NCBI GenBank assembly: GCA_964588685.1
Contig: CAZPQG010000002.1
Span: 35,481 to 99,480 of the forward strand
Reading direction: 5' to 3'
DNA length: 64,000 nt
Source of the DNA: an uncultured Pseudomonadales bacterium
GTDB lineage: Bacteria > Patescibacteriota > Microgenomatia > UBA1400 > PJMF01
Positions 11,237 to 60,346 of the stretch are shown here, one piece after another (position 1 is the first letter of the stretch; each line of letters begins with the position of its first letter). Position numbers and translations under genes: made by a program. Below the pieces are notes generated by a model, which was given only the letters and a program-made list of their open reading frames with translations, ran no database searches and was not told where the DNA came from.

Positions 11237-12316
11237 TTACTTTTTATTTTTCGCTAATTTAAAAACTAATCCTGAAGCAAACAGGACTGTGGTTAAAGAC
11301 GATCCTCCATAAGAAAACAGCGGTAACGGCAAACCTGTTAACGGAACCAAAGCTACGATTGAAGCTAAATTTAAAATAGTTTGAACAGCAATCCAAGTTA
11401 AAACGCCAATCAATAAAAGCTGTTCAAATGACTGCGATTTTTGCCTAATTGCAGTTTGATAGATCAAATAAAACCAATAACTAAAAGCAGTAATAATAAT
11501 CATCGAACCAATAAAACCTATTTCTTCTGCCACAATGGAAAAAATTGAATCACTGCTGACTTCAGGAATAAAGGCGTATTTTTGTTGCGAATTACCTAAA
11601 CCTCGACCAAGCCAGCCGCCGCTGCCTAATGCCAAGGTGATCTGTCTAATTTGAAAACTAGCGCCCAACGGATCTGTTTGGGGATTGAAAAATGTTTGTA
11701 TTCTCCTAAGCCGATAAGGAGAAAGAGCTACTACAATTACTAATGCCAAGCCCGTCACGGCGCCAATAGGCAATATTTTCTTGATATCTCCGCCGGCTGT
11801 AAAAAAAATACTGGCAGCAATTGTTAATAAAACTAACAATGAGCCTATGTCAGGCTGTAATAAAAGGATTAAAGAGGGGAGAGCAGTTAAAAAGATAAAA
11901 GGTGTTATTTTTTGATGATCGCTCATCCAGTTAGCAAAAAATATAGCTAATCCCAGTTTGAACAATTCCACCGGTTGGAAAGAGGTAAAGCCCAGATCCA
12001 GCCAACGTCGGGCAGCATTAACTTCTACTCCAATAGCAGGAACCAAAGTTAAGGCTAACAAAATTAAAAAAAGAATGTATAACGGAAAGCTCAATTTTGA
12101 CCAGATTTTAAGAGGCATGAAATAAGCAATAAAAAAACCCAGCACCCCGATCACAAACCAAATTAATTGCCGCACAATAAAATAATATTGATGGCCGTAC
12201 AGTGTAAAGCTTTCAACAGTTGAAGCTTCAAAAACAAAAAATAAGCCAACCAAAGACAAAAGCGTGAGTACAAAAATAAATTTACCGGCGAGAGAAGTTT
12301 TAAAGACGTTGGGCAT
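11237..12316 (-). CDS. ftsW: SEDS peptidoglycan polymerase FtsW
   Basis: Multi-TM protein with PLTGLPLPLFSYGGSS signature, located between mraY and murG. Confidence 0.8.
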   Translation of the reverse strand: MPNVFKTSLAGKFIFVLTLLSLVGLFFVFEASTVESFTLYGHQYYFIVRQLIWFVIGVLGFFIAYFMPLKIWSKLSFPLYILFLILLALTLVPAIGVEVNAARRWLDLGFTSFQPVELFKLGLAIFFANWMSDHQKITPFIFLTALPSLILLLQPDIGSLLVLLTIAASIFFTAGGDIKKILPIGAVTGLALVIVVALSPYRLRRIQTFFNPQTDPLGASFQIRQITLALGSGGWLGRGLGNSQQKYAFIPEVSSDSIFSIVAEEIGFIGSMIIITAFSYWFYLIYQTAIRQKSQSFEQLLLIGVLTWIAVQTILNLASIVALVPLTGLPLPLFSYGGSSLTTVLFASGLVFKLAKNKK

Positions 12317-13549: not shown

Positions 13550-14926
13550 TTAAGCCGCCCTTGCTCTCTCGATATTAGCCCCCAGTGATCTAAGCTTAAC
13601 ATCAATCTGTTCATAACCACGATCAATTTGATTAACATCCGTCAAAATTGTTTGGCCCTGTCCGCTGATAGCAGCCAATAATATTGTGGCACCGGCCCTA
13701 AGATCGCAGACTTTGAATTTACCGCCGGTAAACTGAGTTGGACCGCTGATTTTAATGGCATGAATATCACTTTCTTTTCTATCTTTCCAATTAAAATTAT
13801 ATATTTTTTCCGGATAAGGTACATCCAGTTCGATTGGCTTAATGTCAGCGCCCATTTTGTTTAAATGTTCAATATATTGGAAACGATTTTGCATCACCGT
13901 TTCATGAACAATACTATCCCCCTCAGCTTGAGAAATTAAAGTAGTCCACAACGGCTGCCAATCAGTCATAAATCCGGGATGTATGCCGGTAGCAACATCA
14001 GTGGCGCGTAATTTGTCCTGATAAAAAAATCTTGCACCGTAATTACCCGCCTCGAAACCTCCTCCTGCTTCCTCCAGTTTATCAATAAAAGCCGTAAAAT
14101 CTTGACACTGCGCGTTCTCAATAATAACATCGCCTTTAGTGGCCACGGCTGCACAGGCATAACTCACAGCTTCATTCCGGTCAGGCATTACTTGGTGAAT
14201 AGCCCCATGCAGCTGTGATACTCCTTCTATTTCAATCACTCTATTAGCCCGTCTTCTCACGCGGGCTCCCATTTCATTTAAAAATAAAATTAAATCATCA
14301 ATTTCCGGCTCTTGAGCGGCATTCTCCAAAATTGTTGTTCCCTCAGCTAAAACGGCAGCCATAATTAGTGTCTCGGTACCGGTATGAGTATTTTTTGCAA
14401 AACGATAATTAGCGCCGATTAATTGGTCTGTTTCCAGATGTAAAAACCCATCATGATATTCATAATCCACTCCTAATTTTTTTAAACCGGCTAAATGCCT
14501 GTCTAAGGGACGGACTCCTATTTGATCACCACCGGGTAGAGGTAGTTTGGCTTTACTAAATTTTGCTAATAACGGACCGATAAACAAAGTAGAAGCTCTT
14601 GATAATGGGCCGTATTCATTAGCAATTTCAAATTGATCAATTCCCCGGGGATCAAGAAACAGCATTTTAGGACCTGCTTCCCACACCTTGCCTCCTAATT
14701 TTTTAATAACATCAGCTACTAAATAAACGTCTTCAATATCAGGCAAGTTCAACAGACAGCTTTTACTATCTGCCATCAGAGAAGCAATCATTAATTTATA
14801 AGAAGCATTTTTAGCTCCACCCAACCTCACTACGCCGCTTAAAGGAGTGCCGCCCTGGATAACGAGCTTAGTTTGATTTAACTTGTTTTCCGGTGAGCCA
14901 TTATTACTAAAATTCATAGAATTCAT
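13550..14926 (-). CDS. murA: UDP-N-acetylglucosamine 1-carboxyvinyltransferase; active-site Cys replaced by Asp
   Basis: LGGAKNASYKLMIASL and EPT fold. The position of E. coli Cys115 reads PGGDQIGVRPLD. Confidence 0.85.
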   Translation of the reverse strand: MNSMNFSNNGSPENKLNQTKLVIQGGTPLSGVVRLGGAKNASYKLMIASLMADSKSCLLNLPDIEDVYLVADVIKKLGGKVWEAGPKMLFLDPRGIDQFEIANEYGPLSRASTLFIGPLLAKFSKAKLPLPGGDQIGVRPLDRHLAGLKKLGVDYEYHDGFLHLETDQLIGANYRFAKNTHTGTETLIMAAVLAEGTTILENAAQEPEIDDLILFLNEMGARVRRRANRVIEIEGVSQLHGAIHQVMPDRNEAVSYACAAVATKGDVIIENAQCQDFTAFIDKLEEAGGGFEAGNYGARFFYQDKLRATDVATGIHPGFMTDWQPLWTTLISQAEGDSIVHETVMQNRFQYIEHLNKMGADIKPIELDVPYPEKIYNFNWKDRKESDIHAIKISGPTQFTGGKFKVCDLRAGATILLAAISGQGQTILTDVNQIDRGYEQIDVKLRSLGANIERARAA

Positions 14927-30954: not shown

Positions 30955-31791
30955 ATGAATGAACCTCTGAGTTCAGCTGAAATTAAACGACTGACTAACA
31001 CAGCACAAGTGGTGAGAATTAAAATAATTGAGATGCTAGCTCGAGCCGGGTCCGGGCATCCGGCCGGAGCTCTAGGCATGACTGATATTTTTACAGCGCT
31101 ATATTTTAAATTACTCAAACATCGACCTGACCAACCGGACTGGGATCAACGTGACTACCTTCTTTTATCAAATGGACACATCTGTCCGGTCTTATATGTT
31201 TGTTTGGCTGTGGCTGGTTATTTTCCGGTCGAAAAATTAACTCAACTACGGCAAATAGACAGCCCTTTGCAAGGTCATCCTAAATTATCATCATTACCTG
31301 GTGTTGAAATTACCTCCGGTTCTTTAGGTCAGGGTTTATCTCAAGCTTGCGGCTTGGCGCTGGCATTAAAACACGATCAAAAAAATAATCATATTTATTG
31401 TTTAATGAGTGATGGTGAGCAACAAGAAGGCCAAACTTGGGAGGCATATATGCTGGCTGCTAAATATCAATTAATAAATTTAACAGCCATTATTGATCGC
31501 AATATGATTCAAATCGGCGGCAGGACTGAACAAATTATGCCCTTGGAAAATCTTGTGGCAAAACTTAAATCTTTTGGCTGGCAGACTTTAGCAATTGACG
31601 GTCATAATTTAAATAACATTGCTGCTGCAGTCTCAGAAGCCAAATCAGATAATGCTCCCACTGCGATAATAGCCAATACAATTCCGGGGAAAGGTGCTGA
31701 TTTAATGGAACATGATCATCGCTGGCACGGCAAAGCTCCAACTTTAGAACAAGCTCAACAAATTATTCGTAATCTAGCTTCAAAACCATGA
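30955..31791 (+). CDS. Transketolase, N-terminal (TPP pyrophosphate-binding) subunit
   Basis: GHPAGALGM, GHICPVLY, and GSLGQGLSQACG TPP motif; its stop overlaps the start of the next gene. Confidence 0.8.
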   Translation: MNEPLSSAEIKRLTNTAQVVRIKIIEMLARAGSGHPAGALGMTDIFTALYFKLLKHRPDQPDWDQRDYLLLSNGHICPVLYVCLAVAGYFPVEKLTQLRQIDSPLQGHPKLSSLPGVEITSGSLGQGLSQACGLALALKHDQKNNHIYCLMSDGEQQEGQTWEAYMLAAKYQLINLTAIIDRNMIQIGGRTEQIMPLENLVAKLKSFGWQTLAIDGHNLNNIAAAVSEAKSDNAPTAIIANTIPGKGADLMEHDHRWHGKAPTLEQAQQIIRNLASKP

Positions 31792-32831
31792 ATTCTAATT
31801 CAACATCAGTTATTGATGAACCATTAGCAACCAGAGACGGGTTTGGTCTTGGGTTAGTACAAGCCGCTCAAGTTAATCCGGCTGTCTTTGCCTTAACAGC
31901 TGATTTGACCAAATCTTTAAGAATGACTAAATTTAAAGAAAAATTTCCTGATCGGTTCGTACAAGTTGGTGTGGCTGAACAAAATTTAATCGGAACTGCG
32001 GCTGGTTTATCTTTAGCCGGAAAAATTCCTTTTGCAGCCAGTTTTGCTGTCTTTAGTCCAGCTCGAAGTTGGGATCAAATTAGATTGTCAGTAGCTTACA
32101 GTAATTTAAATGTAAAAATTGTTAGCTCTCATGCCGGATTAGCCACCGGCGCTGACGGGGCCTCGCACCAATCATTGGAAGATATTGGTTTGATGAGAGT
32201 TTTGCCTAACATGAAAGTGATTGAGCCTTGCGACGCTGAACAAGCCCGGCAAGTAGTACACGCTCTGGCGGCTGATCAAGGCCCAGCTTATTTAAGACTA
32301 ACCCGGCCGAAAGCACCTATTATTACTCAGCAACAAAAATTTGTTTTAGGGCAAGCTCAAGTTTTGTATCCCGACCCGGAAACAGAAAGTCAAAAGCGTG
32401 CTACAGTGAACAACAAACAAAAAGAAACAAATCGAACATCAGTTAATTATGAAGCAGTTATTATTGCTTGCGGCAGTATGGTGCATCAGGCTTTAAAGGC
32501 TGCCCGCCAACTAAAAAATGAAAATATTTCAGTACAAGTGATTAATATGCACACTATTAAGCCCCTTGACAAACAAGCTCTTATTGAAGCTGCTAAACAG
32601 GCAAAAATAATCCTCACGGCAGAAGATCATCAAATTAACGGCGGATTAGGTTCTGCAGCAGCAGAAGTGTTATTAACGTCACAAGAATTAATCTCGCCGC
32701 ATCAATTTAAATTCAGCATGATTGGAGTTAGAGATAAATTTGGAGAATCCGGCCGGCCCGAAGAGCTAAGAGAAAAATACGGCCTCAGCAGTGAAAAAAT
32801 TACACAAACGATTAAAAATTTGTTGGATTAA
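31788..32831 (+). CDS. Transketolase, C-terminal (pyrimidine-binding and C-terminal domain) subunit
   Basis: Transketolase Pyr domain and C-terminal domain pattern; 4-nt overlap with the upstream subunit. Confidence 0.8.
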   Translation: MNSNSTSVIDEPLATRDGFGLGLVQAAQVNPAVFALTADLTKSLRMTKFKEKFPDRFVQVGVAEQNLIGTAAGLSLAGKIPFAASFAVFSPARSWDQIRLSVAYSNLNVKIVSSHAGLATGADGASHQSLEDIGLMRVLPNMKVIEPCDAEQARQVVHALAADQGPAYLRLTRPKAPIITQQQKFVLGQAQVLYPDPETESQKRATVNNKQKETNRTSVNYEAVIIACGSMVHQALKAARQLKNENISVQVINMHTIKPLDKQALIEAAKQAKIILTAEDHQINGGLGSAAAEVLLTSQELISPHQFKFSMIGVRDKFGESGRPEELREKYGLSSEKITQTIKNLLD

Positions 32832-38960: not shown

Positions 38961-41081
38961 TTAAGTGTTATTTTTTTGGATAAAGAGATCAATCAAAAAT
39001 TCTAAATGTTCATCTGCATCTTCCTCAATTAAGTCAAAACCTTTATTAATATCGTCTCTGCTGATGTTAGCAGCAAACGACTTATCGCCCAATTTCTTTT
39101 TAACTTTGCTTGGCTTCATACCCACAAAATCTTTGGGCCTCATCAGAGAATAGGCATATAAAAACCCACTTAATTCATCGCAAGCAAAAAGATAACGATC
39201 AAGCATTGCGCTGGGCTCAACTTTGGTCCTCAAAGGGGCATGAGCTCTCACGGCTTCAATAAGTTCTAAGGGATAATCAGTTAACAACTCTTCGGCTGCC
39301 TTTAACGGGTGCTCATCCGGATATTTTTCCCAATCTAAATCATGCAATAAGCCGGTTTGATACCATAATTCCGGATTTTGTCCTAGTTTCTCAGCATAAG
39401 CTGCTAAAGCTTGAGCAGTCATCAAACAGTGGTGTCTTAAATTTTTATTTTTTATATATTGATGCATTAATTTTGTAGATTCCTCTCGAGTAGGAAGCTC
39501 GACTGCAGCTGAAGCAGCGGCGGTGTTACTAGAGCCAGCTTGCGCATCCTCCTTCTGTTTAACTGCCTTCTCTTGCCCTTGATCAGTTTTTTGATTATTG
39601 ATTTTTTCCGGCTGACGAGGAGCTTGTTGTGAAAACTCAGGTTTTAAAGTTGGAAATGCAATTACTTCTTTAATTGACCAAGTATTAGTTAAAAACATTA
39701 CTAACCGATCAATGCCCATGCCTATTCCTCCTAAAGGCGGCAGGCCGTATTCTAAAGCTCTTAAAAAATCTTCATCAGTCGGATGAGCCTCTTCGTCTCC
39801 GGCTCTCATCTGCTGCTGTTCATTTTTAAAAAGATTTCTCTGATCAATCGGATCTACTACCTCGCTCCAGCCGTCAGCTAACTCTTTGCCGCCGACATAG
39901 GCTTCAAAGCGTTCACAATACCAATCATCTTCGCGGTGAACTTTAGCCAGCGGGCTGACATCACGAGGATAATCAATAATCCATACCGGTTGAATTAATT
40001 TATCTGTGACTAATTTGTCAAACAAATTAAACATTGCTTTGCCACGACTATAACCGCCCGGCAAGTCAATTTCATGTTCAGTTAAAAGTTGTTTGACGGC
40101 TTGATCATCCAACTGTTTAAAATCAATCTCAGCAAACTCTTGCAAAGCATCAATCATCTTAATACGCGGCCAGCTGCCGCTTAAGTCAATACTTGTTTCA
40201 CCGACCATTATTTCATGACTGCCATGAATAACCTGCGTCAGCTCTTGAATCATTTCTTCAGCTATATCCATCATAGTATGATAATCAGCGTAAGCCTGAT
40301 ACCATTCAATCATAGTAAATTCAGGCTGGTGAGTTTGGTCAATACCTTCATTTCTAAAATTACGGGCAATTTCAAAAATCCGTTCATAACCACCTACAAT
40401 CAATCTTTTTAAATATAATTCCGGGGCAATTCGCAAATAAAAATCACTGTCCAAGGCATTCATATTGGTGGAAAACGGACGGGCATTAGTGCCGCCGTAT
40501 ATAGCCTGTAGGACAGGTGTTTCCACTTCAGTGTAATTGTGTTTTTCCTGTAAAAATCGACGCATTTCTTTGAGTATTTTCCAGCGCGTATCTAAAATTT
40601 GGCGGACATCGTCATTAATCAAAATATCTACATATCTTTGACGAAACCGCACCTCTTTATCTTCTGCTGCATTCCATTCAGTCGGAATTGGCCGCAAAGC
40701 TTTGCCTAAAAACTTAAATTTTTCTGCTTGAATAGTTAATTCACCCGCCTTTGTTTTAATGACTTCTCCGCTTACTCCTAGAAAGTCTCCCGGATCTATA
40801 TGCTGCAAAAGTTCAAATTGTTTTTTTGACAACTCGTCTTGGCGAAGCATTACCTGTATAACAGCTGTCGAATCTTTAAGATCTAAAAAAACTACCTTAC
40901 CGTGTGGTCGTTTCGCCATGATTCGACCTGAAGTTTTGGCTTGACCACCCACACCAGTTCCAATAAGCTCTTCAATAGTTTGTTGTTTATCAAAGCTATA
41001 GGGATGAATATCAACGCCTTGATCTTGCAAAGCTTTCCGCTTTTGGATTTTAGCTTTAATAGCAGATTCTAATCTTGACAT
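38961..41081 (-). CDS. lysS: Lysyl-tRNA synthetase (class II) fused to a C-terminal HD-domain phosphohydrolase
   Basis: Residues ~1-480 carry LysRS motifs (FRNEG, GGIGMGIDRL). They are followed by a Q/K-rich linker and an HD core LRHH...LLHDLD (roughly 38961..39550). Confidence 0.85.
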   Translation of the reverse strand: MSRLESAIKAKIQKRKALQDQGVDIHPYSFDKQQTIEELIGTGVGGQAKTSGRIMAKRPHGKVVFLDLKDSTAVIQVMLRQDELSKKQFELLQHIDPGDFLGVSGEVIKTKAGELTIQAEKFKFLGKALRPIPTEWNAAEDKEVRFRQRYVDILINDDVRQILDTRWKILKEMRRFLQEKHNYTEVETPVLQAIYGGTNARPFSTNMNALDSDFYLRIAPELYLKRLIVGGYERIFEIARNFRNEGIDQTHQPEFTMIEWYQAYADYHTMMDIAEEMIQELTQVIHGSHEIMVGETSIDLSGSWPRIKMIDALQEFAEIDFKQLDDQAVKQLLTEHEIDLPGGYSRGKAMFNLFDKLVTDKLIQPVWIIDYPRDVSPLAKVHREDDWYCERFEAYVGGKELADGWSEVVDPIDQRNLFKNEQQQMRAGDEEAHPTDEDFLRALEYGLPPLGGIGMGIDRLVMFLTNTWSIKEVIAFPTLKPEFSQQAPRQPEKINNQKTDQGQEKAVKQKEDAQAGSSNTAAASAAVELPTREESTKLMHQYIKNKNLRHHCLMTAQALAAYAEKLGQNPELWYQTGLLHDLDWEKYPDEHPLKAAEELLTDYPLELIEAVRAHAPLRTKVEPSAMLDRYLFACDELSGFLYAYSLMRPKDFVGMKPSKVKKKLGDKSFAANISRDDINKGFDLIEEDADEHLEFLIDLFIQKNNT

Positions 41082-41812: not shown

Positions 41813-43813
41813 TTATTCCCCTAAAACTAGGACTGCATCAAATTCTTCCGTCGGATCTTCAGTTCTAATTTCCTCAGAAAAAACCAGTTCCTGTTCTAAA
41901 TCTTCAGCCATTGTCTCTAGCAGAAGATCATCACGTTCAGCCATTAATAAATAAAAACCCGGTTCATAGGTATCAACTGCATTTTTAGCTTCAACTTCAC
42001 CATAACCTAAGTCTAATAATTCTGTAGAAATTTCTCCGGCATAACCTGCTTGAGTGGTGGCATTTACCACTCTTATTGAATATTCGGAGCGATCAATTTC
42101 CGGCTCCGGAGTAGGGGAGGGCTCTTCTTCAATTGTTTCAGGCTCTTCAACTTCAGTCGTTGTTTCCTGATCACCGGTCACCGGGGTCCGAATAGTGTCT
42201 GGTTGAGACAATTTTAATACTCCATAGCCAACGCCGATGCCAACCGCAACAGTTAATGCAAATGCTCCAAAGCCAACCAAAATCATTTTTAACAGGCCGC
42301 TGGTGCCATCATCATTTTTAATAGTTCTTTTCATGGTAGGCTGCTCCTTTGACTTTAAATTTTGTTTAGCTGATAATTTTTTTTCTTTACGTTTACTAGT
42401 GAATTTACTTAGGTCAACAGCAAACATATCACCATCCTCTTCTTTCTTTTTTTGATCAGATTGATCTACTTCTTTACTTTCAGCTGCCTCTTGAGCGCTG
42501 TCTTTAATTACTGCAGTTGATGCTGAAGCTGCTGCTGGCGCTGCTTGAGCAGCCGGCTGATAAACTCGTTTGCCAGCTTTGTCAGCTGATTTTTCCTCAG
42601 TGCCGCTGTCTGCTTGAGTCGCTCTTTCTGCTTCGTTTTTCTTAGATTGTTTTTCTTCTTGTGTTGAGATTGCCGTTTCTGGTTCCGGTTCTTCTTTTTT
42701 ATCATTTGTTTCTTGAGCTTGGCCCCCAGTTTTTTCAGCAACTGCTGCATCGTCTAGATCTATGGACGATTCAGGCTCAATTTCAACATCAGCCCTTTCA
42801 GTATCAGCAGCGTTCTTTTCATCGTCTGACATTGCTGCTGATTTTTCGCCCGGCTTAGGCAATTGGCCGGCAGCTCCATTTTTTTCTTCAGGAACTTTTT
42901 TTGCAGCATCAATTTCAACTGCTGCTTTTTTAAATTGATCTTTAATTTCAGCTGAAACTTTTATCTTTTCTCGGTTAAATTCAGGAATCTCAAATTCATC
43001 AATACTAATCGTACGCATGGCAATAGTCATAGCTTCTGCCACATAATTCGGCAATTCATCGCCATTCTCTTTTTGAACCAATTGTTGAATCGGTAAAATA
43101 TCATCCAACTTCTCTTTTAATTCATCTTCTACTGCCTCATTGGATAATAAATAAGCCGTTTGCAGGCTAGGCTCAACGCCTTTCAAGGTTTTAATTGCTT
43201 CTACAAACCGATCAATATTTTTTATGGAATCCACCATCGGCTGGTCTACACCAATATAATGTTTAGCCATAAATAAATTTTCTCCCAGCTGCAACAACGA
43301 AACAGAAGGTTCGAGAGAAATGATAGATTTAATAGTCCAGCTTAAGGGGTAAATTTTATTAAAAACAACTTTTTTACTTTCAAAAGCGTATTTAAGAGGA
43401 GCCAATATAGAATGCTGAACTGTTGATAATTGAACTTTAAAACTACCTTTATACTCACTTAAAATAAAAGTTTCGATTAAGTGCGAATCTGGAGAAATAT
43501 GTAAGCTAGGGATAACTTCTTCTGTTAAATGCTCTTTTACTTGAGCTTCATTTTCTTTTTCCAGATCAATAATAGTATTGGTAAACATTTCATCAGCCAA
43601 AACTATTTCAATTTCACCTTCCTCGAGTTTATCTTCAACCCTGGCTGCTAATTTAACAATGTTCTCAGGAATAAGCTGCCCGTCTTTAATGAGCTTACCA
43701 TTAAATTGCTTAAAACTTTGGATTGAAAAATTATGAGGTTTTTTGCCAGGTAAAAATTCAGCTAAATAAGCTAAATTTGGCAAAATGTATAAAAGTTTTT
43801 GGGTATCAAGCAT
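41813..43813 (-). CDS. Hypothetical bitopic protein: ~330-aa cytoplasmic domain, ~200-aa acidic/Lys-rich disordered linker, single TM, C-terminal LytR_C-like domain
   Basis: TM at LLKMILVGFGAFALTVAVGIGVGYGVL. C-terminal IRVVNATTQAGYAGEISTELLDLGYGEV...YLLMAER resembles the LytR_C/DUF4115 consensus. N-domain unassigned. Confidence 0.35.
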   Translation of the reverse strand: MLDTQKLLYILPNLAYLAEFLPGKKPHNFSIQSFKQFNGKLIKDGQLIPENIVKLAARVEDKLEEGEIEIVLADEMFTNTIIDLEKENEAQVKEHLTEEVIPSLHISPDSHLIETFILSEYKGSFKVQLSTVQHSILAPLKYAFESKKVVFNKIYPLSWTIKSIISLEPSVSLLQLGENLFMAKHYIGVDQPMVDSIKNIDRFVEAIKTLKGVEPSLQTAYLLSNEAVEDELKEKLDDILPIQQLVQKENGDELPNYVAEAMTIAMRTISIDEFEIPEFNREKIKVSAEIKDQFKKAAVEIDAAKKVPEEKNGAAGQLPKPGEKSAAMSDDEKNAADTERADVEIEPESSIDLDDAAVAEKTGGQAQETNDKKEEPEPETAISTQEEKQSKKNEAERATQADSGTEEKSADKAGKRVYQPAAQAAPAAASASTAVIKDSAQEAAESKEVDQSDQKKKEEDGDMFAVDLSKFTSKRKEKKLSAKQNLKSKEQPTMKRTIKNDDGTSGLLKMILVGFGAFALTVAVGIGVGYGVLKLSQPDTIRTPVTGDQETTTEVEEPETIEEEPSPTPEPEIDRSEYSIRVVNATTQAGYAGEISTELLDLGYGEVEAKNAVDTYEPGFYLLMAERDDLLLETMAEDLEQELVFSEEIRTEDPTEEFDAVLVLGE

Positions 43814-47766: not shown

Positions 47767-48786
47767 TTACTCGCTATCAACAACTGCCTCAATTCCAGCT
47801 TGAAAAGCTTCAAAAATATTAGTGGGCTGATTTTGTTCATCAAAAAAACTAAATTGAGAAAATTGTCCCGGAGCTCCTCGTAATATAAAGGGTGTAATGC
47901 CGATTACTTTAGGATGTGACCAAATATGCTGCATGGCATATAAATAATAACTTTTAAGCCAGGGGCGAGTATAGTGATTATCAACCCAGCCGGTTTCAGT
48001 AATAATTACCTTAAAATCTTTACCTGTTCTTTTCTTTAAAAAGTTAAGCTCATGTTCAAAGCCGCGAATTGAATCTTGAGCGGTTCGCGTTGGACTGGAG
48101 GAAAAACCAGGATTTGGATAAGAGTGAGAATTCCAAACATCAATATGATCAAAAATCCAAGGATTATGAGCCAGCATTTTTTTCAAATAAGTAAAAGCTT
48201 CCATGGTTTCATCTGAATTTGGAGCTGCTAAGTCCATTGCAGCCGGCATTACTACGTAATCCGCCTGCTCAGTATTTGCCCAGCTGGCAGCAAACTCTAA
48301 AACTTGAGTATAACTAAGTGGATCAACTTGACCTCCCCATTCCTGAGCATGATTTACTTCATTAAAAATAATCACGTGCCGTTGCTCAGTCGGCCAATCT
48401 AACTTATCCATAAACTGAAACATTTTTACGATCTGGTATCTAGTAGGACGGGCCCAAACACCAGGCTCTTCATGAAAAGTGGCTAGTCTTAATAGAGGAA
48501 TAAATTTATTTTTGCCGGCCTCCTGAAAAAATTTTTGCCACAGCTCCAACTGATTCAAGTCATTAACAGTTAATGGAATTGTTAAAAAATGCCAATCATC
48601 TTTCATTGCACCTTCTTTTAACAACAACTTAGCACTGTCTAAATCAGTTGGAGAAAGAATATGTACTCCTAAAACTTTATTTTCAATAGCTTGAGCTGAT
48701 GATGGGCGGAAAAGCTGCCCAAAAAAAAGGGAGGCGATAAAAATTACAATAAAAATTGGATGAAGTAAAAAATGTTTCAAACGCAT
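47767..48786 (-). CDS. Secreted clan GH-A (TIM-barrel) glycoside hydrolase-like protein
   Basis: Signal peptide/TM; FNEVN (NEP-like acid/base) and ITETGW (TExG nucleophile) motifs typical of the GH5/26/113 clan. Confidence 0.45.
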   Translation of the reverse strand: MRLKHFLLHPIFIVIFIASLFFGQLFRPSSAQAIENKVLGVHILSPTDLDSAKLLLKEGAMKDDWHFLTIPLTVNDLNQLELWQKFFQEAGKNKFIPLLRLATFHEEPGVWARPTRYQIVKMFQFMDKLDWPTEQRHVIIFNEVNHAQEWGGQVDPLSYTQVLEFAASWANTEQADYVVMPAAMDLAAPNSDETMEAFTYLKKMLAHNPWIFDHIDVWNSHSYPNPGFSSSPTRTAQDSIRGFEHELNFLKKRTGKDFKVIITETGWVDNHYTRPWLKSYYLYAMQHIWSHPKVIGITPFILRGAPGQFSQFSFFDEQNQPTNIFEAFQAGIEAVVDSE

Positions 48787-49013: not shown

Positions 49014-49673
49014 ATGAAAAAAATTTGGAAAACTTTACTGTGGCTGTCGTTTGCAACTTCCACCATTTTATCAAGTATTATTCTCTTTTGTTTATTTTAT
49101 CAAACCCCGCAAACTACCATTGTGCAGCAAGAATTACAGCAGGTCAGTATTAACTCCAGCAACCAAGAAAATACTAAGGTGCAAGGAATACAAAGCACTG
49201 TTAAACTGGAAGACGCTCGAGCAGAAATTGTAGCAAATTTTTTAGCCCAGCACAATTCTCCTTTAAGACCTTACACTTATTACGGTCAATTGCTAGTTAA
49301 AATCGCAGACCGCCATCAATTAGATTTTAGATTTTTGCCTGCTATTATGATGCAAGAAAGCAATCTGTGCAAAAATATTCCTGAAGGGACTTATAACTGC
49401 TTAGGTTTTGGCATTCATTCCGGAGGCACTTTAGGTTTTGAAAGCTATGAGGCAGGTTTTGAACGAGCAGCTCGAGAACTACGCGCCAATTATGTAGAAC
49501 AAGGCAGAATTAAAGTCTCAGAAATAGCTCGCAAATATACTGCCAGTGTTGATCAGTGGACTAATGCAGTCAGCCAATTTATGTCTGAAATGGAATATGA
49601 TGATCGACAAAAGGGAATTGAGAAAAGAGGTGATGCCAGTGTTTTGGAATACGTAAGGTTGGATGAATTATAA
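49014..49673 (+). CDS. Membrane-anchored lysozyme-like/SLT-like domain protein
   Basis: N-terminal TM; AIMMQESNL resembles the lytic transglycosylase catalytic E-S motif. Weak assignment. Confidence 0.3.
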   Translation: MKKIWKTLLWLSFATSTILSSIILFCLFYQTPQTTIVQQELQQVSINSSNQENTKVQGIQSTVKLEDARAEIVANFLAQHNSPLRPYTYYGQLLVKIADRHQLDFRFLPAIMMQESNLCKNIPEGTYNCLGFGIHSGGTLGFESYEAGFERAARELRANYVEQGRIKVSEIARKYTASVDQWTNAVSQFMSEMEYDDRQKGIEKRGDASVLEYVRLDEL

Positions 49674-54556: not shown

Positions 54557-55651
54557 ATGAAAAAAAATAAAAAAGAATTTGATGCAAAAAATATAGATTC
54601 ATTGGAAAAAATCAAAAAAATTGACAAGGAAAATGTGCTTGGCTCAATCGAGGCTTTACCTGACCAAATACGCCAGGCCTGGCAAGAAACCAAGCAACTT
54701 GATTTTGACCTCAACCAATCCATTCATAATATTACCGTAGCTGGAATGGGAGGCTCCGGTTTGGGAGCTGATGTTGTTAAGCACGCCTTTAAAAATGAAC
54801 TTGAAGTGCCCTTAAACATTGTCAACAGCTACTTACTACCCGGCTATATTAAATCTGATTCTTTGGTAATTTTATCCAGCTACTCAGGTAATACTGAAGA
54901 AGTACTAAGCTGTGCAGAGCAAGCGCAAGAGAAAAAAGCACAAATATTAGTTATTACCCAAGGTGGAAAGCTGGCTAAAATTGCTCAGCAAAATAACTAT
55001 CCAACTTATATGATCAAGCCGGACCACAATCCCTCTGACCAACCAAGAATGGCTATTGGCTATGCCATTGTTGGTTTAATGGGTTTGCTGCACCAAGCTG
55101 AATGCATTCAAATTAAAGATACTGAAATCGAACAAATAGTAGAGACAGTTTTAACCAACATGCATCAGTGTTCTGTGGATAGGAAAAGCGACAACAACCC
55201 GGCCAAAACATTGAGCTACACTTTAATTGACCGACGGCCCAATATTGCCACTGCTCAATTTTTAAACGGAGCCGGACATGTAGCCTCAAACCAATTCAAT
55301 GAAAATGCTAAAACCTTTGCCAACTACTATCAGATACCGGAAATTAACCACCATTTGCTTGAAGCTTTACAATTTCCGGCCAGCAACAAATTAGATAACT
55401 TTTTCTTATTTTTTAATTCTGACTTATATCATGAAAAAAACAAGCAAAGAATGAAGCTGACGCAAAAAGCAGTAGAGAAGCAGGGCATGGAGTCGCTCAT
55501 GATTAACCTTAAAAGTGATTCTAAGTTGGATCAAATCTTTGAATTAATTACCCTTATGGCTTATGCCAACTTTTATTTGTCGATTTTACAGCAAATTAAT
55601 CCCAGCAAAATTCCAATGGTAGATTGGTTTAAAGAACAATTGTCTAACTAA
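54557..55651 (+). CDS. Bifunctional phosphoglucose/phosphomannose isomerase (archaeal-type, SIS domain)
   Basis: SIS motif VAGMGGSGLGADV; ~360 aa, the size and pattern of the PGI/PMI family. Confidence 0.7.
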   Translation: MKKNKKEFDAKNIDSLEKIKKIDKENVLGSIEALPDQIRQAWQETKQLDFDLNQSIHNITVAGMGGSGLGADVVKHAFKNELEVPLNIVNSYLLPGYIKSDSLVILSSYSGNTEEVLSCAEQAQEKKAQILVITQGGKLAKIAQQNNYPTYMIKPDHNPSDQPRMAIGYAIVGLMGLLHQAECIQIKDTEIEQIVETVLTNMHQCSVDRKSDNNPAKTLSYTLIDRRPNIATAQFLNGAGHVASNQFNENAKTFANYYQIPEINHHLLEALQFPASNKLDNFFLFFNSDLYHEKNKQRMKLTQKAVEKQGMESLMINLKSDSKLDQIFELITLMAYANFYLSILQQINPSKIPMVDWFKEQLSN

Positions 55652-55973
55652 TTTTTTTTAAAGTCATAGTCAAAAAAATATACTCAAAAAAAAATTAGTC
55701 TGGGCAAACTATGGCAACTAATAGCAATTGATGATTGTCAATCTTTGTCAACTGTTATCAATAATTGTGGTTTAGAGTATAAAATTACTATTAACTTTAA
55801 TTTAAGAATTAGCTGCCAGTCAGCTAGTATCTCATTCAACCTCTGAACTTTTGGAGCTTAACTTTTATCATCTCTAATTTTAAAATATGATAGTATTGAT
55901 ATTGATATCAATTTAAGCAATCAATTGAAAGTATTATAAATATTTTAAGCATCTAATAAGCTTAATTTTTAAC

Positions 55974-58142
55974 ATGCCCGTAGTTAATCCTGCTCATCAA
56001 TTTTTACAATTTCCTAAAACTGAAGTCGGTACATACGCTCTGGATTTAGCTCGATTAGCAGCCAATAAGATTCCTCTCCCACCCACTTACTGCATCCCCA
56101 TCAGTACTTTAAAAAAAATAGGTCAAGCTAATAATCTGCAAACTAAATTTAATAAAATTGCTAACAGCACCGATCTTCAATCTCAAGAAGAACTGGAGCA
56201 AACTGTGGCCAAGATACAAAATTTAATTAGACAACAAGTTTATCCGCATCAAATTTCTAAAAAACTTTTACAATTCTATGCTAAAAAATTAGATAAAGAT
56301 TATATTCGGCTTACAGCCAGCCCGGTAGACGGTAAAAAAATAGATTTTAAACGCGAAGATAATATTAAAGGTGAGGCCAATATGATGGAATCTATTTTAA
56401 ATGTGTGGGCGCTCAACATTGATCTCACTGATATCCAGGACAACAATTTATTTCCGGTCGCCATTGTTATGCAGGCACAAACCCAGCCCATTAGTTCAGG
56501 CCTAGCTTATAGCATGAATATTAATAATGGAGATAAATCTAAAATTACAATCTCTTCAGTGTTTGGAGTATACGCTATTCCGGAATCAGAGCAAGCCCAT
56601 GACACTTATATTATTGATCAGCGCAGCTGGCAAATTTCCCAACAGACTAAAGCAGAAAGCAAACAATTTTTTAAACGGCAGCCTGATCAATTAACAATTC
56701 AACAAAAGCCTAAACTTGGTAACCAATTTAGTTTAAGCACTGACAAAGCTATTGAACTAGCGCATTTAGTTAAAAAAATTAAGTTAACTAGAACAGAGCA
56801 AATTAAAATACATTGGGAACTGCAGAACGATCAGCTACTAATTACAAAAATTAAACCCTATCATTACTCCTCAGCTCACGCTTTTGATCAAGAAAAATAT
56901 ACTACTTTAGTGATAGGGCATGGTGTTACCTCAGGTTTTGTTTCAGGCAGATGCTTTTTAATTGAACAAGCACAAGATGTAAAAGCAATTAAACCGGGCA
57001 TGATAGCAGTAGTTAAAGAATTAACCAGAGAGCATCAAAAGCTTTTGCAAGTCTGCAGTGCCATTATCTGTGAAACAACTATTAAAGATCAATTAATCTT
57101 AAACAAAATTCGAGACTATTCTTTGCCGGTCATTATCTCAGCCCAGCACGCCTTAAAACAACTGCGTAATGAGCAACTGGTGACAGTTGATGCCGCTGCC
57201 GGCAAAGTCTACCAAGTTAAATCAGAGCAAAAAATCGACCAAAAATTAACTGTCAGCAGTAAAACAAAGCTATATTTGGCTGTGAATAATTTTGACGAGA
57301 TATCAGAAAAAATGGCCTTAATTTCAAACGGCATTGGTTTACTGCGCAGCGAACATCTTTTTATCAAAACTGGCTTACACCCACAGCAAATTCTTAAAAC
57401 TAGAGCTAATCAATTTCAAAAAAAGACTGTCAATGATTTGCTCAGATTTTATCATCGCTTTATTAATTTAAAACAACAAGAGCCACTCATAATTTACCGC
57501 TCTAACAATTTAAATGCCAACCAGTTAGCTCAACTGGAAAGCGGTCATATTTATGAAAATATTGAAAATAATCCTTATTTAGGCTTTAGAGGAGGCATCA
57601 GGTATCTCAATCAAAATGATTGGTTTAAGTTTGAACTAAAACTGTTAACAAAAATCAATCAAAAGATTGATAAACCAGTTAATTTACAATTGCCTTTTGT
57701 TCGCTCTGCTTTTGAGCTCAACCAATTATTCCAACAAATTAACAATCAAATTGAAGCACCGGTTTTACAGCCCCCAATTTGGCTGGAAATTGACACCCCT
57801 GAAAATCTGCTGAATGTTGAAGAATATCTCCAAATTCCACTGGCCGGAATTAGTATTAATATTAAAAACATACACGCTTTATTAAATGGGATTGATCCCG
57901 GATTTACCGATATTTATAATCAATATACCCTTAATCATCAGTTGCTTATTCCGGCTCTTAAAAACCTTATTGCCAAAACAAAAGAAATTCATCAAAAAAT
58001 TAAAATTCATTTAATTTTACCTGATTTTTCTGAAAAACTGCTGCAAGAAGCTAAAGATTTAGGAATAGAAGGCGTGATTGTTCGACCCGAAGTTTCAGTA
58101 CAAACTAAAAAATACTTAATAGAACACGAAACAACTTTATAA
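55974..58142 (+). CDS. PEP synthase/PPDK-family three-domain protein apparently lacking the catalytic His and the C-domain Cys (probable pseudoenzyme)
   Basis: PPDK_N-like N-terminus; mobile-domain alignment G.G.TSGFVSG...PGMIAVV...AIICETTIKDQLILNKIRDYSLPVIIS where the consensus has [21 protein letters not shown]; C-domain GIGLLRSEHLF, NPYLGFRGGIRY, LPFVRS retained. Confidence 0.6.
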   Translation: MPVVNPAHQFLQFPKTEVGTYALDLARLAANKIPLPPTYCIPISTLKKIGQANNLQTKFNKIANSTDLQSQEELEQTVAKIQNLIRQQVYPHQISKKLLQFYAKKLDKDYIRLTASPVDGKKIDFKREDNIKGEANMMESILNVWALNIDLTDIQDNNLFPVAIVMQAQTQPISSGLAYSMNINNGDKSKITISSVFGVYAIPESEQAHDTYIIDQRSWQISQQTKAESKQFFKRQPDQLTIQQKPKLGNQFSLSTDKAIELAHLVKKIKLTRTEQIKIHWELQNDQLLITKIKPYHYSSAHAFDQEKYTTLVIGHGVTSGFVSGRCFLIEQAQDVKAIKPGMIAVVKELTREHQKLLQVCSAIICETTIKDQLILNKIRDYSLPVIISAQHALKQLRNEQLVTVDAAAGKVYQVKSEQKIDQKLTVSSKTKLYLAVNNFDEISEKMALISNGIGLLRSEHLFIKTGLHPQQILKTRANQFQKKTVNDLLRFYHRFINLKQQEPLIIYRSNNLNANQLAQLESGHIYENIENNPYLGFRGGIRYLNQNDWFKFELKLLTKINQKIDKPVNLQLPFVRSAFELNQLFQQINNQIEAPVLQPPIWLEIDTPENLLNVEEYLQIPLAGISINIKNIHALLNGIDPGFTDIYNQYTLNHQLLIPALKNLIAKTKEIHQKIKIHLILPDFSEKLLQEAKDLGIEGVIVRPEVSVQTKKYLIEHETTL

Positions 58143-58160
58143 TTATTTATTAATAAATTC

Positions 58161-59423
58161 ATGTCAAAAATAGCTGCCATTAAGGCTAGAGAGATTTTAG
58201 ACAGCCAAGGACTACCTACCCTGCAGATTTTTTTGTGGATTGAAGACGGCAGATCAGTGGCAACCACAGTCCCCAATGAATGGAGTTACGACAACCCGCA
58301 GGCAGCAGTAAGTCGGGATAATGACAACCAGGAATTTAATGGCTTAGGAGTAAAGCAGGCAGTAACAACGATAAACGAAACTATTGCTCCTCAACTGTTA
58401 AATCTCTCTTGTATTCAGCAAGGGGCAATTGATCAAAGTTTACTGGAAATTGACGGCACCGGCAATAAATCTAAGCTGGGAGCAAATACCACTTTGGGCT
58501 TATCAATGGCAGTCTTGAAAGCCGGAGCATTAAGCACCAATTTACCTCTGTACAGCTATATTAGTCAAAAATACCAGTTAACTGATTATTTATCGATTCC
58601 CAATTGTGTTTATTCTCTCATCAATGGCGGCGAGTTCGGCAACGGTAATCTTGATTTTTTAGAATTTGAAATAATTCCAGCCAGCCATGTTTCCTTTCAT
58701 CAATCAATCACCATTGCTTCCACTTTAAAACAAAAAATTAGGGAAGTGATTGACACTAAAGGCGGCTCTGTCTGCATTGGCTCACAAGGTGGATATTTAC
58801 CCAGAATGAATAGCAACAGTGATGTTTTTGAGCTGCTGCTTGAAGCAATTAAAGTTTCTAATTACACTTTTGCTCAAGATGTATTCTTTGGCTTAAACGC
58901 CAATGCCGATGATTTAATCATTGACAACGGCTATCGTCTGCGTGACAAGCCTGATAAGTATAGTGCGGATGATCTTTTAAAGTTGTATTCTCAACTGCGC
59001 GAAAAATATAAAACTATTTATTTAGAAGATCCTTTTGACAGCGGAGATGAAAAGTCATGGCAAAAAATTACCAACCAACTAGGCACCACTACCAACATTG
59101 TGGGAGATGGATTAATTAGAGGCGATAAAGATAAACTGTCTACTGCCATTAAAAAGAATACCTGTAATTCTTTTTGTATTAAAACACTAGATTTTGGGAC
59201 CATTAGCGAAACTATATTTGCTATTAACTTAATAAAAGAAGCAGAGTTGTCATGTATTATTGCTGATCATTCCGGAGAAACTAACGATACTCTGACTGTA
59301 GATTTAGCAGTGGGAGTAGGCGCTGATTATGTTAAGTTCGGCCCTCCGAACAGAGGTGAAAAAATTGTTAAATACAATCGTTTAATAGAAATTAATGAAG
59401 AACTAGGGGCAGCCAATTCCTAA
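58161..59423 (+). CDS. Enolase-superfamily protein (enolase-like) with substitutions at several canonical catalytic/metal residues
   Basis: Aligns end to end with enolase (ILDSQGLPT, SIPN..INGGE, GGYLPR, IKT, SGETND, KYNRLIEI). However, GDEGG becomes GSQGG, MDCAASE becomes NANADD, and SHRSGE becomes ADHSGE. Confidence 0.7.
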   Translation: MSKIAAIKAREILDSQGLPTLQIFLWIEDGRSVATTVPNEWSYDNPQAAVSRDNDNQEFNGLGVKQAVTTINETIAPQLLNLSCIQQGAIDQSLLEIDGTGNKSKLGANTTLGLSMAVLKAGALSTNLPLYSYISQKYQLTDYLSIPNCVYSLINGGEFGNGNLDFLEFEIIPASHVSFHQSITIASTLKQKIREVIDTKGGSVCIGSQGGYLPRMNSNSDVFELLLEAIKVSNYTFAQDVFFGLNANADDLIIDNGYRLRDKPDKYSADDLLKLYSQLREKYKTIYLEDPFDSGDEKSWQKITNQLGTTTNIVGDGLIRGDKDKLSTAIKKNTCNSFCIKTLDFGTISETIFAINLIKEAELSCIIADHSGETNDTLTVDLAVGVGADYVKFGPPNRGEKIVKYNRLIEINEELGAANS

Positions 59424-59725
59424 TTACGACTTCTTTTTAATTTTATTTTACTACCGTTTTTAGTACCGTAAAATTCTGTAGCCTTTCTATTTTTTTTATT
59501 ATCTCACTCCCAAATAAAAGAAGAAACTTAATTTATTTATTTTGATGCTTTTAGATGCATTAATATGTACTTGCCTATTCGCTATCTGTTCGGTTATTCT
59601 TAAATTAATTCGGGTTTTTATATAAAAAGTTTCACTTAAACCCGAAACAGCACAACTATTGATTTAATCAAAAAATTAAATTATTGAATATTTATTAAAA
59701 AATTAAACTATAAAAGGAGGCTTTC

Positions 59726-60346
59726 ATGGTAGTGACTCTTTATAAAAGACAACGGCAAATTTTGGATTTTATTACACAGTACATCCAAAAAAATGGCTAC
59801 GCTCCAACTTTAAGAGAAATAGCAGATGCAATTAATGTCTCTTCTTTAGCAACAGTGCATGAGCATCTAGAGGCTTTAAATCGAAAAAAAGTGATTAAAA
59901 AACACAGCGGTAAAGTAAGAGGTATAGAACTAGTAGATAAAACATTTTTAAGCAATGACGAAAGCGTTGATTTGCCATTATTGGGTTATATCGCTGCAGG
60001 CTCACCTATTGAACCTTACGCAAATGATGACGCCACTTTTAAAGTCTCCCCAGAACTAATTACCGGTAAAAAACGGGCCTATGTTCTACAAGTAAAGGGG
60101 CAATCGATGATTGAGGATCACATTCAAGACGGAGATTATGTAGTGGTAGAAGAAACTTCTGAGGTTGATAACGGTGAAATTGTAGTAGCATTGCTAGACA
60201 ACGGCTTAGCCACTTTAAAAAAATATTATAAAGAAATGACGCGAGTAAGATTAGAACCAGCTAATGCCAATATGAGTCCAATTTACGCCACTAATGTCCA
60301 GATACAGGGTAGGGTAGTTGGTCTCATCAGAAAATTCAGAAACTAA
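59726..60346 (+). CDS. lexA: LexA repressor (S24 peptidase)
   Basis: Winged-HTH N-domain, AG cleavage site (YIAAGSP), catalytic Ser in GQSM and Lys in TLKK; strong AAAGGAGG SD. Confidence 0.85.
   Translation: MVVTLYKRQRQILDFITQYIQKNGYAPTLREIADAINVSSLATVHEHLEALNRKKVIKKHSGKVRGIELVDKTFLSNDESVDLPLLGYIAAGSPIEPYANDDATFKVSPELITGKKRAYVLQVKGQSMIEDHIQDGDYVVVEETSEVDNGEIVVALLDNGLATLKKYYKEMTRVRLEPANANMSPIYATNVQIQGRVVGLIRKFRN

Follow-up and report, generated by a model that had tools for sequence, protein, structure and literature searches.

A PEP synthase-derived protein of Microgenomatia that lacks the canonical catalytic sites and is encoded beside an altered enolase

Phosphoenolpyruvate (PEP) synthase, PpsA, is composed of three domains: an ATP-grasp domain, a swivel (mobile) domain, and a PEP/pyruvate-binding TIM barrel. 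Metabolic surveys of candidate phyla radiation (CPR) bacteria count PEP synthase and enolase as functional, and PEP synthase has been proposed as a stand-in for pyruvate kinase, which is frequently missing in these bacteria (PMC7304191; PMC7143001). DPANN genomes without glycolysis also retain PEP synthase, and its role there was left open (preprint 10.64898/2026.05.13.725050). Here we describe a PpsA-derived gene in which every canonical catalytic site has been lost. The gene occupies positions 55974–58142 of the + strand of a 64,000-nucleotide stretch of DNA (hereafter, the window) from an uncultured bacterium of the Microgenomatia (GenBank assembly GCA_964588685.1, contig CAZPQG010000002.1, positions 35,481–99,480). 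The fold and parent family of its product, here called the PpsA-like protein, are already known. The large CPR family to which it belongs is apparently undescribed, as a literature search for a His-less PpsA/PPDK family, a pseudo-PpsA or pseudo-PPDK, and a Glu211-less enolase in CPR bacteria found nothing relevant.

Catalytic columns of the PpsA-like protein

The PpsA-like open reading frame (ORF) is intact, with an ATG at 55974, a stop codon at 58140–58142, and 722 encoded amino acids, and the identical protein sequence occurs on three independent assemblies. Some sources annotate the protein as 'pyruvate, water dikinase.' The three-domain architecture of PEP synthase is present according to Pfam profiles, an AlphaFold2 model built from 29 orthologues (predicted local distance difference test score, pLDDT, 84.9), and Foldseek comparisons. 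It consists of an N-terminal ATP-grasp-like domain (amino acids 1–300, 55974–56873), a swivel domain (amino acids 306–418, 56889–57227), and a C-terminal TIM barrel (amino acids 425–722, 57246–58139). The PPDK_N profile (PF01326) matched with 71.1 bits against a gathering threshold of 27, and the PEP-utilizers_C profile (PF02896) with 54.5 against 22.8, the latter over profile positions 8–160 of 293 only, leaving the second half of the barrel unrecognized. The mobile-domain profile (PF00391) fell slightly below its cut-off (21.3 versus 23.1 bits), and the swivel fold is present in the AlphaFold2 model. The protein scored below both equivalog models for PpsA, with 204.7 bits versus the 598 required by NF005057 and 188.8 versus the 739.75 required by TIGR01418. 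Its best matches in sequence and structure are PpsAs. The nearest solved structures found by HMMER are PEP synthases (the archaeal 24-mers 8A8E and 9DAE, and Neisseria meningitidis 2OLS), Foldseek matched the model over its full length to 2OLS and to PPDK, and the barrel has a template modeling (TM) score of 0.85 to that of 8A8E.

Motif columns were read from HMMER alignments to solved PpsA structures and from MAFFT alignments with E. coli PpsA (b1702; sequence from NC_000913) as the anchor, and the two readings agree. The roles assigned to these columns are those established by structural work on PPDK (His455, Cys831, Glu745, Asp769, and Arg337) and on Enzyme I (EI) of the phosphotransferase system (His189, Cys502, Glu431, Asp455, and Arg296/332/358/465). 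E. coli residues K27, R127, E320, Q334, R336, H421, R511, R578, R608, R649, E680, N703, D704, R714, and C751 correspond to Y, T, H, K, K, L, R, R, R, R, D, K, N, P, and H in the window protein, so that only the four central arginines are unchanged.

In the nucleotide site of the N-terminal domain, the VGGK of VGGKNAS reads VGTY (56025–56048), with Tyr21 for Lys27, and the Arg127 column of RSSA holds a Thr. Glu320 is lost through replacement of DIEW by KIHW (56802–56822), as are Gln334 and Arg336 through replacement of QARPET by TKIKPY (56841–56861). The same domain carries a derived but conserved motif, KREDNIKGEANMMESIL (56349–56399). The loop of the swivel domain, SAIICETTIKDQLILNKIRDYSLPVIIS (57057–57140), places Leu374 (57093–57095) in the column of the phospho-His, His421 of GGRTCH, and the alignment is ungapped there. 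The only His residues of the swivel domain, His354 and His392, are both located beyond the catalytic loop. In the barrel, WLEIDTPENLLN (57780–57815) takes the place of the block containing the Mg2+ ligand Glu680, which is Asp606 here and Asn in most relatives. SINIKNI (57852–57872) stands in place of SIGSND, with Lys631 and Asn632 for Asn703 and Asp704, and GIDPGF (57888–57905) in place of GLDRDS, with Pro642 for Arg714. The block with the acid/base Cys, GICGQ, is replaced by KIKIHLILP (57996–58022), in which His679, at a position that varies among clade members, occupies the column of Cys751.

The arginines that bind the phosphate and carboxylate of PEP, Arg511, Arg578, Arg608, and Arg649 in E. 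coli, are all retained. They correspond to Arg458 in GIGLLRSEHLF (57330–57362), Arg509 in YRS (57489–57512), Arg539 in NPYLGFRGG (57570–57605), and Arg577 in LPFVRS (57690–57707), and the PpsA blocks LLRSE, NPxLGxRG, and PFVR are kept with them, as is the terminal GIEGVIVRPEV. These arginines correspond to Arg296, Arg332, and Arg358 of EI and to Arg561 and Arg617 of PPDK. The window protein shares a homologous swivel domain and PEP-binding barrel with these two enzymes, and is missing their phospho-His (EI His189, PPDK His455), their Cys (EI Cys502, PPDK Cys831), and their Mg2+ ligands (EI Glu431/Asp455, PPDK Glu745/Asp769). The ATP-grasp domains of rifampin phosphotransferase (RPH), PigC/RedH, and the HpeHI kinase superpose on its N-terminal domain, with Foldseek TM scores of 0.7–0.77 for RPH and HpeI and weak NCBIfam matches as well. 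In those enzymes, the nucleotide site and the catalytic His are both preserved and the third domain is of another kind, whereas the window protein has kept the barrel and lost both sites.

These results agree with a sequence-only reading of the locus, which had described the swivel-domain His, the barrel Cys, and an N-terminal Gly-rich loop as absent, NIKNI as standing where an Asn-Asp motif is expected, and the PEP/pyruvate-binding blocks of the barrel as kept. It had named beforehand the presence of the catalytic His and Cys in an alignment as the refuting outcome, and neither residue was found in its column; the two-residue gap that it had introduced into the swivel loop is not needed. The damage is wider than it had listed, extending to Glu320, Gln334/Arg336, both Mg2+ ligands, the Asn, and a fifth Arg. 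All 29 aligned clade members have the same residue losses, and none has a His in the swivel loop, which argues against chance or sequencing error as the cause.

As read from these alignments, the phosphotransfer relay is lost at the nucleotide site, at the phospho-His, and at the Mg2+ and acid/base site. With all three sites gone, no pyruvate,water dikinase reaction would proceed by the known mechanism, and it is firmly supported that no mechanism known for pyruvate,water dikinases is available to the PpsA-like protein. An alternative phospho-acceptor in or near the swivel loop was considered and rejected. The loop has no conserved His or other nucleophile, His354 and His392 are outside it, and Cys366 (in IICE) is nearly invariant within the three-domain clade only. 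The His421 column itself is variable among relatives, being occupied by L, S, N, or E.

Family, selection, and remodeling of the barrel

A word-indexed search identified 28 full-length relatives with 38–67% identity to the window protein, as well as more distant ones, all with the same losses. Dozens of genomes contain full-length orthologues free of in-frame stops, with identities as low as 26%, and when 1.8 billion cluster representatives were searched with a profile, 1097 matched at E<1e-30. The metagenome-assembled genomes from which the close relatives come are labeled Candidatus Pacebacteria, Candidatus Woesebacteria, Microgenomates group, or Patescibacteria group. Many loci bear the title 'uncultured Pseudomonadales,' apparently as a placeholder, since their contigs share the CPR-type order of genes. 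An automatic alignment, which may misassign borderline cases, was used to sort the 143 nearest full-length representatives into classes. Three domains with loss at every one of the three sites were seen in 38, and complete absence of the swivel domain in 43; the His is gone and the other sites are partly kept in 32, the His is kept alongside a degraded ATP or PEP site in 24, and 6 are fully canonical. More careful alignments were made to recheck the window clade and the swivel-less group. In the swivel-less proteins, which are 590–650 amino acids in length, the N-terminal domain is fused directly to the barrel, and the precomputed Pfam matches of a 609-amino acid form likewise include no mobile domain. 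This sister group was found at loci L021–L030 and L042–L044 (for example, L042, 8164–9993). The nucleotide site of the N-terminal domain is unconserved in every subgroup.

Positional orthologues of the gene form a graded series, with NF005057 scores of 966, 620, 502, 205, and 146 bits. At the top of this series is a fully canonical PpsA (P0086, 966 bits), encoded on a Patescibacteria-like contig (L034) in the same slot between PGI and enolase as the window gene. Enolase is followed there by the phosphoglycerate mutase iPGM, an ADP-forming acetyl-CoA synthetase, and PFOR, which is the gene layout of a fermentative lower glycolysis, with PpsA expected to work in the PEP-to-pyruvate direction. 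The next orthologue (P0083; L035, 6001–8247; 620 bits) has kept the His, and its barrel already contains INTPEN and has lost the Asn, Asp, and Cys. A third (P0073, 502 bits) has kept the nucleotide site and the Cys, and its His loop is deleted. The window clade, at 205 bits, and the swivel-less form, at 146 bits, complete the series. Based on these sequences and their positions, descent of the PpsA-like family from a glycolytic PpsA by vertical, positional orthology is firmly supported.

Selection on the gene was assessed from the ratio of nonsynonymous to synonymous substitution rates (dN/dS) in the closest usable pair of loci (L001/L010, dS 0.81). The ratio was 0.076 for the PpsA-like gene (N-terminal domain 0.074, swivel 0.110, barrel 0.066), compared with 0.019 for PGI, 0.021 for enolase, 0.008 for LexA, and 0.109 for a nucleotidyltransferase; a second pair of loci gave 0.13 for the PpsA-like gene. 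These values clearly point to purifying selection in all three domains. The gene is the fastest evolving of its cluster (mean distance 1.5, versus 0.65 and 0.2 for enolase and LexA, respectively), with a rate about twice that of its glycolytic neighbors. Such a rate might suggest a decaying pseudogene, or the sequence an assembly artifact, but this explanation is effectively refuted by the low dN/dS (0.08), by ORFs that stay intact down to 26% identity, and by the identical protein on three independent assemblies. The invariance of the derived motifs and the AlphaFold2 pLDDT of 85 also argue against it.

Conservation was evaluated among 78 family members having the derived TPEN motif, with three-domain and swivel-less forms combined. 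Sixty positions are at least 80% conserved, 38 of them in the barrel, 22 in the N-terminal domain, and none in the swivel domain. T608, P609, E610, N611, and Y618 are 100% conserved, and R509, R539, and R577 are at least 89% conserved across the family; these three arginines, along with Glu528, Asn533-Pro534, and largely Arg458, are the ancestral substrate-site residues that survive. Replacements at the former catalytic columns are fixed: Glu680 by Asn (Asp in the window), Asn703 by Lys/Arg, Asp704 by Ser/Thr/Asn, and Arg714 by Pro. Newly invariant residues are Thr608-Pro-Glu610-Asn611, Tyr618, Asn629, Asp641-Pro642, Tyr651, Trp603, and Tyr508, and the degenerate forms share the new invariant barrel motifs NTPEN, SxNx[KR]S, and DP, to which GEANxxES is added in the list for the window protein. 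Family-wide conservation is concentrated on the former active-site face of the barrel. Within the window clade, the three domains are about equally constrained (41–49% pairwise identity). Judged from these alignments, the barrel pocket is remodeled and not merely retained, the arginine half being all that is left of the PEP site.

The PpsA-like protein shares with pseudoenzymes in general the loss of its parent family's catalytic residues under purifying selection. Here, the affected columns have gained a new conserved constellation and show no drift. The suggestion from the sequence-only reading that the protein is a pseudoenzyme or a PEP-binding module therefore stands in its first part, in the sense that the relay is lost at three sites and the gene is under purifying selection, although the new invariant polar motifs would allow a new activity; a PEP-binding module is not established, as just half of the PEP site survives.

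The adjoining enolase and possible functions

An enolase-derived gene (58161–59423, +) begins 18 nucleotides downstream of the PpsA-like ORF. Alignment to E. coli enolase and HMMER alignment to the Bacillus subtilis enzyme revealed that its product has GSQGG in place of GDEGG (58776–58802), and has thereby lost Asp208 and Glu209. Glu209 is the equivalent of yeast Glu211, the general acid; in work on yeast E211Q, enolase activity reportedly fell about five orders of magnitude when this Glu was lost. Enolases without the pair are encoded in the window and at loci L001–L030 and L042–L044. Together with the other enolases of its clade, the window enolase has further lost the Ser41 loop (SGASTG to NEWSYD, 58269–58295), His159 (GGEH to GGEF, 58623–58646), and His370/Arg371 (SHRSGET to ADHSGET, 59262–59288), and in this genome only, the Mg2+ ligand Asp246 is replaced by Asn (MDCA to LNAN, 58890–58907). 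Lys342, Lys393, Glu168, Glu290, and Asp317 are retained.

Asp208 and Glu209 are missing from every readable enolase that adjoins a fully degenerate PpsA-like gene, and from 120 of the 120 nearest enolase clusters (48–100% identity). Most of these clusters have a typical form in which the motif is G[LIV][VGL]GGFTP and all other catalytic residues are kept. GDEGG is kept in the enolases adjoining canonical and His-retaining orthologues, and GIEGG is found beside P0073. This Microgenomates enolase clade and the PpsA-like family thus have parallel losses in the same lineages, and from this correspondence the conclusion that erosion of the PpsA-like protein accompanies a specific change in the adjoining enolase is firmly supported. 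To our knowledge, a clade that keeps everything but its general acid is unusual within the enolase subgroup. The enolase is very strongly constrained (dN/dS 0.02). Its TIGR01060 scores are 350 bits in the window and 454 in the typical form, as compared with 528 for canonical enolase, and because these exceed the cut-off of 300, the Glu209-less enolases are annotated as phosphopyruvate hydratase. An extension of ~210 amino acids brings the enolase encoded beside P0030, the three-domain member that diverges most, to a length of 630 amino acids (L004, 2562–4454).

The order phosphogluco/mannomutase, SIS-type PGI/PMI, PpsA-like protein, and enolase occurs in all fetched family loci with sufficient contig reach, and beyond enolase lie LexA, a PduO-type adenosyltransferase, CTP synthase, and L19. 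The sole exception is the very distant P0031, which has an unrelated context. The spacing between the PpsA-like and enolase genes, 18 nucleotides in the window, is mostly 7–60 nucleotides in relatives, sometimes longer or overlapping. No terminator-like site was found between the two genes in the window, which makes their co-transcription likely. An iPGM gene follows enolase by 8 nucleotides in the swivel-less loci with called genes, and is also found after enolase in L016. The iPGM of the swivel-less group is ~72% conserved and looks intact except for a Thr in place of the phospho-Ser. In L042 (11272–13041), for example, the phospho-acceptor Ser62 is Thr (GNSEVGH to GNTETGH); as compared with the B. 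stearothermophilus enzyme, this iPGM has an N-terminal extension of ~50 amino acids and an internal insertion of ~35. No iPGM occurs at the locus of the window clade or in the 64-kb window. Pfam scans of 43 of the 45 window ORFs of at least 150 amino acids, comprising all but the two at 60.5–64 kb, detected neither a pyruvate kinase or PPDK nor a second enolase or an iPGM.

The explanation that we favor, with confidence evenly balanced between belief and doubt, is that the PpsA-like protein of the window clade is a non-catalytic, metal-independent anion binder that acts through its remodeled barrel together with the enolase-derived partner. In its Microgenomates-type Patescibacteria genome, the window gene is the positional orthologue of a PEP synthase with which related CPR bacteria close lower glycolysis, and with all three relay stations lost, its product would not interconvert PEP and pyruvate by the dikinase mechanism. 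Constraint in the family is concentrated on a remodeled pocket at the C-terminal face of the barrel, formed by the four arginines and by the Lys/Arg that takes the place of Asn beside the former Mg2+ ligand. The Mg2+ ligands themselves have been exchanged for Asn/Asp and Ser/Thr/Asn, and Tyr618, Asn629, Asp-Pro, Tyr651, and Thr-Pro-Glu-Asn are newly invariant. A cationic side chain at the vacated metal site, along with amide and hydroxyl ligands, is what might be expected of a Mg2+-free anion pocket. Metal-independent KDO8P synthases, which have Asn for the metal-binding Cys in a PEP-using barrel, provide a loose precedent only. The pocket may bind a small phosphorylated or carboxylated anion (PEP, 2- or 3-phosphoglycerate, pyruvate, or similar) without metal or phosphoryl turnover, and the two proteins might work as a sensing, regulatory, or scaffolding module instead of as a glycolytic step. 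We infer ligand binding, partnership with enolase, and lack of catalysis. The non-catalytic role is favored because the relay is lost at three stations and the N-terminal nucleotide site is unconserved in all subgroups, and because, in the window clade, iPGM is gone from the locus and the enolase also lacks phosphate-binding residues.

Several observations weigh against a non-catalytic role. The putative ligand is a guess from the retained arginines, and the new barrel motifs, being invariant and polar (Glu, Asn, Asp, and Tyr), would suit a new active site equally well. A mirror-tree comparison of the PpsA-like protein with enolase, controlled for PGI and LexA, indicated no specific co-evolution (partial r 0.22), with higher values for PGI (0.46) and LexA (0.52). 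The operon of the swivel-less group, in which the PpsA-like, enolase, and iPGM genes are 7–8 nucleotides apart and which in L021 also includes an ADP-forming acetyl-CoA synthetase, resembles a working route from 3-phosphoglycerate to pyruvate, in which the two proteins may have remained catalytic. The window also encodes MurB and an apparently functional MurA (13550–14926, −), which consumes PEP, and the cell therefore needs a PEP source. This MurA is of the Asp type (PGGDQIG, not PGGCxIG), the naturally fosfomycin-insensitive form, and is otherwise apparently intact.

In view of the large family, the loss of the swivel domain in the sister group, the canonical positional orthologue, and the altered enolase, a new enzymatic function has to be taken seriously as the main rival of a purely non-catalytic role, although we hold it only tentatively and consider it the less probable. 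The remodeled barrel would in that case be a metal-independent active site that, with the Glu209-less enolase, performs a lower-glycolytic conversion of a non-canonical kind, such as another route from 2-phosphoglycerate (2-PG) or PEP to pyruvate, or phosphoryl or enolpyruvyl transfer to another acceptor. Besides the sister-group operon with the acetyl-CoA synthetase downstream in L021 and the PEP requirement of MurA, the fixed, non-random replacements at the old catalytic columns (Glu to Asn, Asn to Lys/Arg, Asp to Ser/Thr, and Arg to Pro), the complete conservation of TPEN and Tyr618, and a strongly constrained enolase whose typical form keeps all catalytic residues but Asp208/Glu209 are consistent with such an enzyme. 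However, the family of PEP-utilizing barrels has no known member that works without a divalent metal and an acid/base Cys, the unconserved N-terminal nucleotide site leaves no second substrate site in evidence, and substitutions accumulate in the PpsA-like protein at about twice the rate of its glycolytic neighbors. The absence of iPGM from the window clade's locus, and of Arg371/His370 and His159 from its enolase, further argues against 2-PG or PEP chemistry here. A broader version, which we think rather unlikely, is that the two proteins form a co-opted module whose chemistry on 2-PG, PEP, or some related phospho-acid would be new, working without a metal in the barrel and without the general acid in the enolase, and replacing the last canonical glycolytic steps across the Microgenomates/Microgenomatia, with the swivel-less forms as its streamlined end-point.

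It is improbable that the protein is a structural or moonlighting scaffold kept for ancestral protein-protein contacts (an oligomer or an enolase complex) without any small-molecule ligand. The near-equal constraint on the three domains in the window clade (41–49% pairwise identity, with dN/dS of 0.07–0.11 per domain in the L001/L010 pair of relatives), the assembly of its nearest solved relatives, the archaeal PpsA 24-mers, through the barrel domain, and the conserved close coupling to the enolase gene would fit such a scaffold. A pure scaffold would not, however, predict the concentration of wider-family conservation at the former active-site face, including the four substrate-binding arginines, and the sister group does without a swivel domain, with no specific signal of co-evolution with enolase. 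Least plausible of these functional proposals, and in our view very hard to sustain, is that the protein still acts as a PEP synthase or a PEP-to-pyruvate enzyme by way of an unorthodox relay, for instance with another phospho-acceptor. Its annotation in some sources, an operon position that is that of PpsA, and the near-invariant Cys366 of the three-domain clade are in keeping with this proposal. Against it are the catalytic loop without a conserved nucleophile and with a variable His421 column, the loss of all nucleotide-site residues, Mg2+ ligands, and Cys, the sister proteins without a swivel domain, and a score of 205 bits against a cut-off of 598.

Reconstructions of CPR/Patescibacteria metabolism count 'PEP synthase' and 'enolase' by hidden Markov model matches. 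Partly degraded orthologues pass the NCBI cut-off for PpsA (620 versus 598 bits) and are therefore named as functional enzymes; the cluster of P0083, for example, includes a member named 'phosphoenolpyruvate synthase' by NCBI. Systematic over-annotation of PpsA in Patescibacteria is likely. If it is true that a class-level lineage has only forms of both proteins without the catalytic residues, then that lineage either neither makes nor uses PEP in the canonical manner, despite having MurA, or has an unknown chemistry, and in either case the inferred ATP-yielding end of CPR fermentation would need revision. The positional orthologues, ranging from intact to swivel-less, also offer a natural experiment in the dismantling and repurposing of a three-site swiveling enzyme.

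Other features of the window

Upstream of the PpsA-like gene is its conserved neighbor, the bifunctional SIS-type PGI/PMI (54557–55651, +), which appears to be intact, with its catalytic motifs kept. The intervening, unusually long gap of 322 nucleotides (55652–55973) is the presumed promoter region of the PpsA-like and enolase gene pair. No conserved operator or RNA element was found in this gap. Promoter-like matches in 55500–59800 were at chance level only, Rfam detected only tRNAs across the window, and relatives do not share a 12-nucleotide perfect palindrome, ATTGATATCAAT (55901–55912), that lies 73 nucleotides upstream of the PpsA-like start.

The window has a GC content of ~36% and a housekeeping content, including a dcw/mur cluster, aminoacyl-tRNA synthetases, DNA polymerase III alpha, SecA, and a split transketolase. 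Four ORFs have no Pfam match at E≤1e-5, namely 9297–10055 (−, 252 amino acids), 41813–43813 (−, 666 amino acids), 47767–48786 (−, 339 amino acids), and 49014–49673 (+, 219 amino acids). The transketolase is divided between an N-terminal gene (30955–31791) and a C-terminal gene (31788–32831), both on the + strand and overlapping by 4 nucleotides. A class II aminoacyl-tRNA synthetase of the Asp/Lys/Asn type (38961–41081, −; 706 amino acids) has a C-terminal HD-domain extension, and two paralogues of the FtsW/RodA family (2189–3256, −, and 11237–12316, −) are located in or near the dcw cluster.

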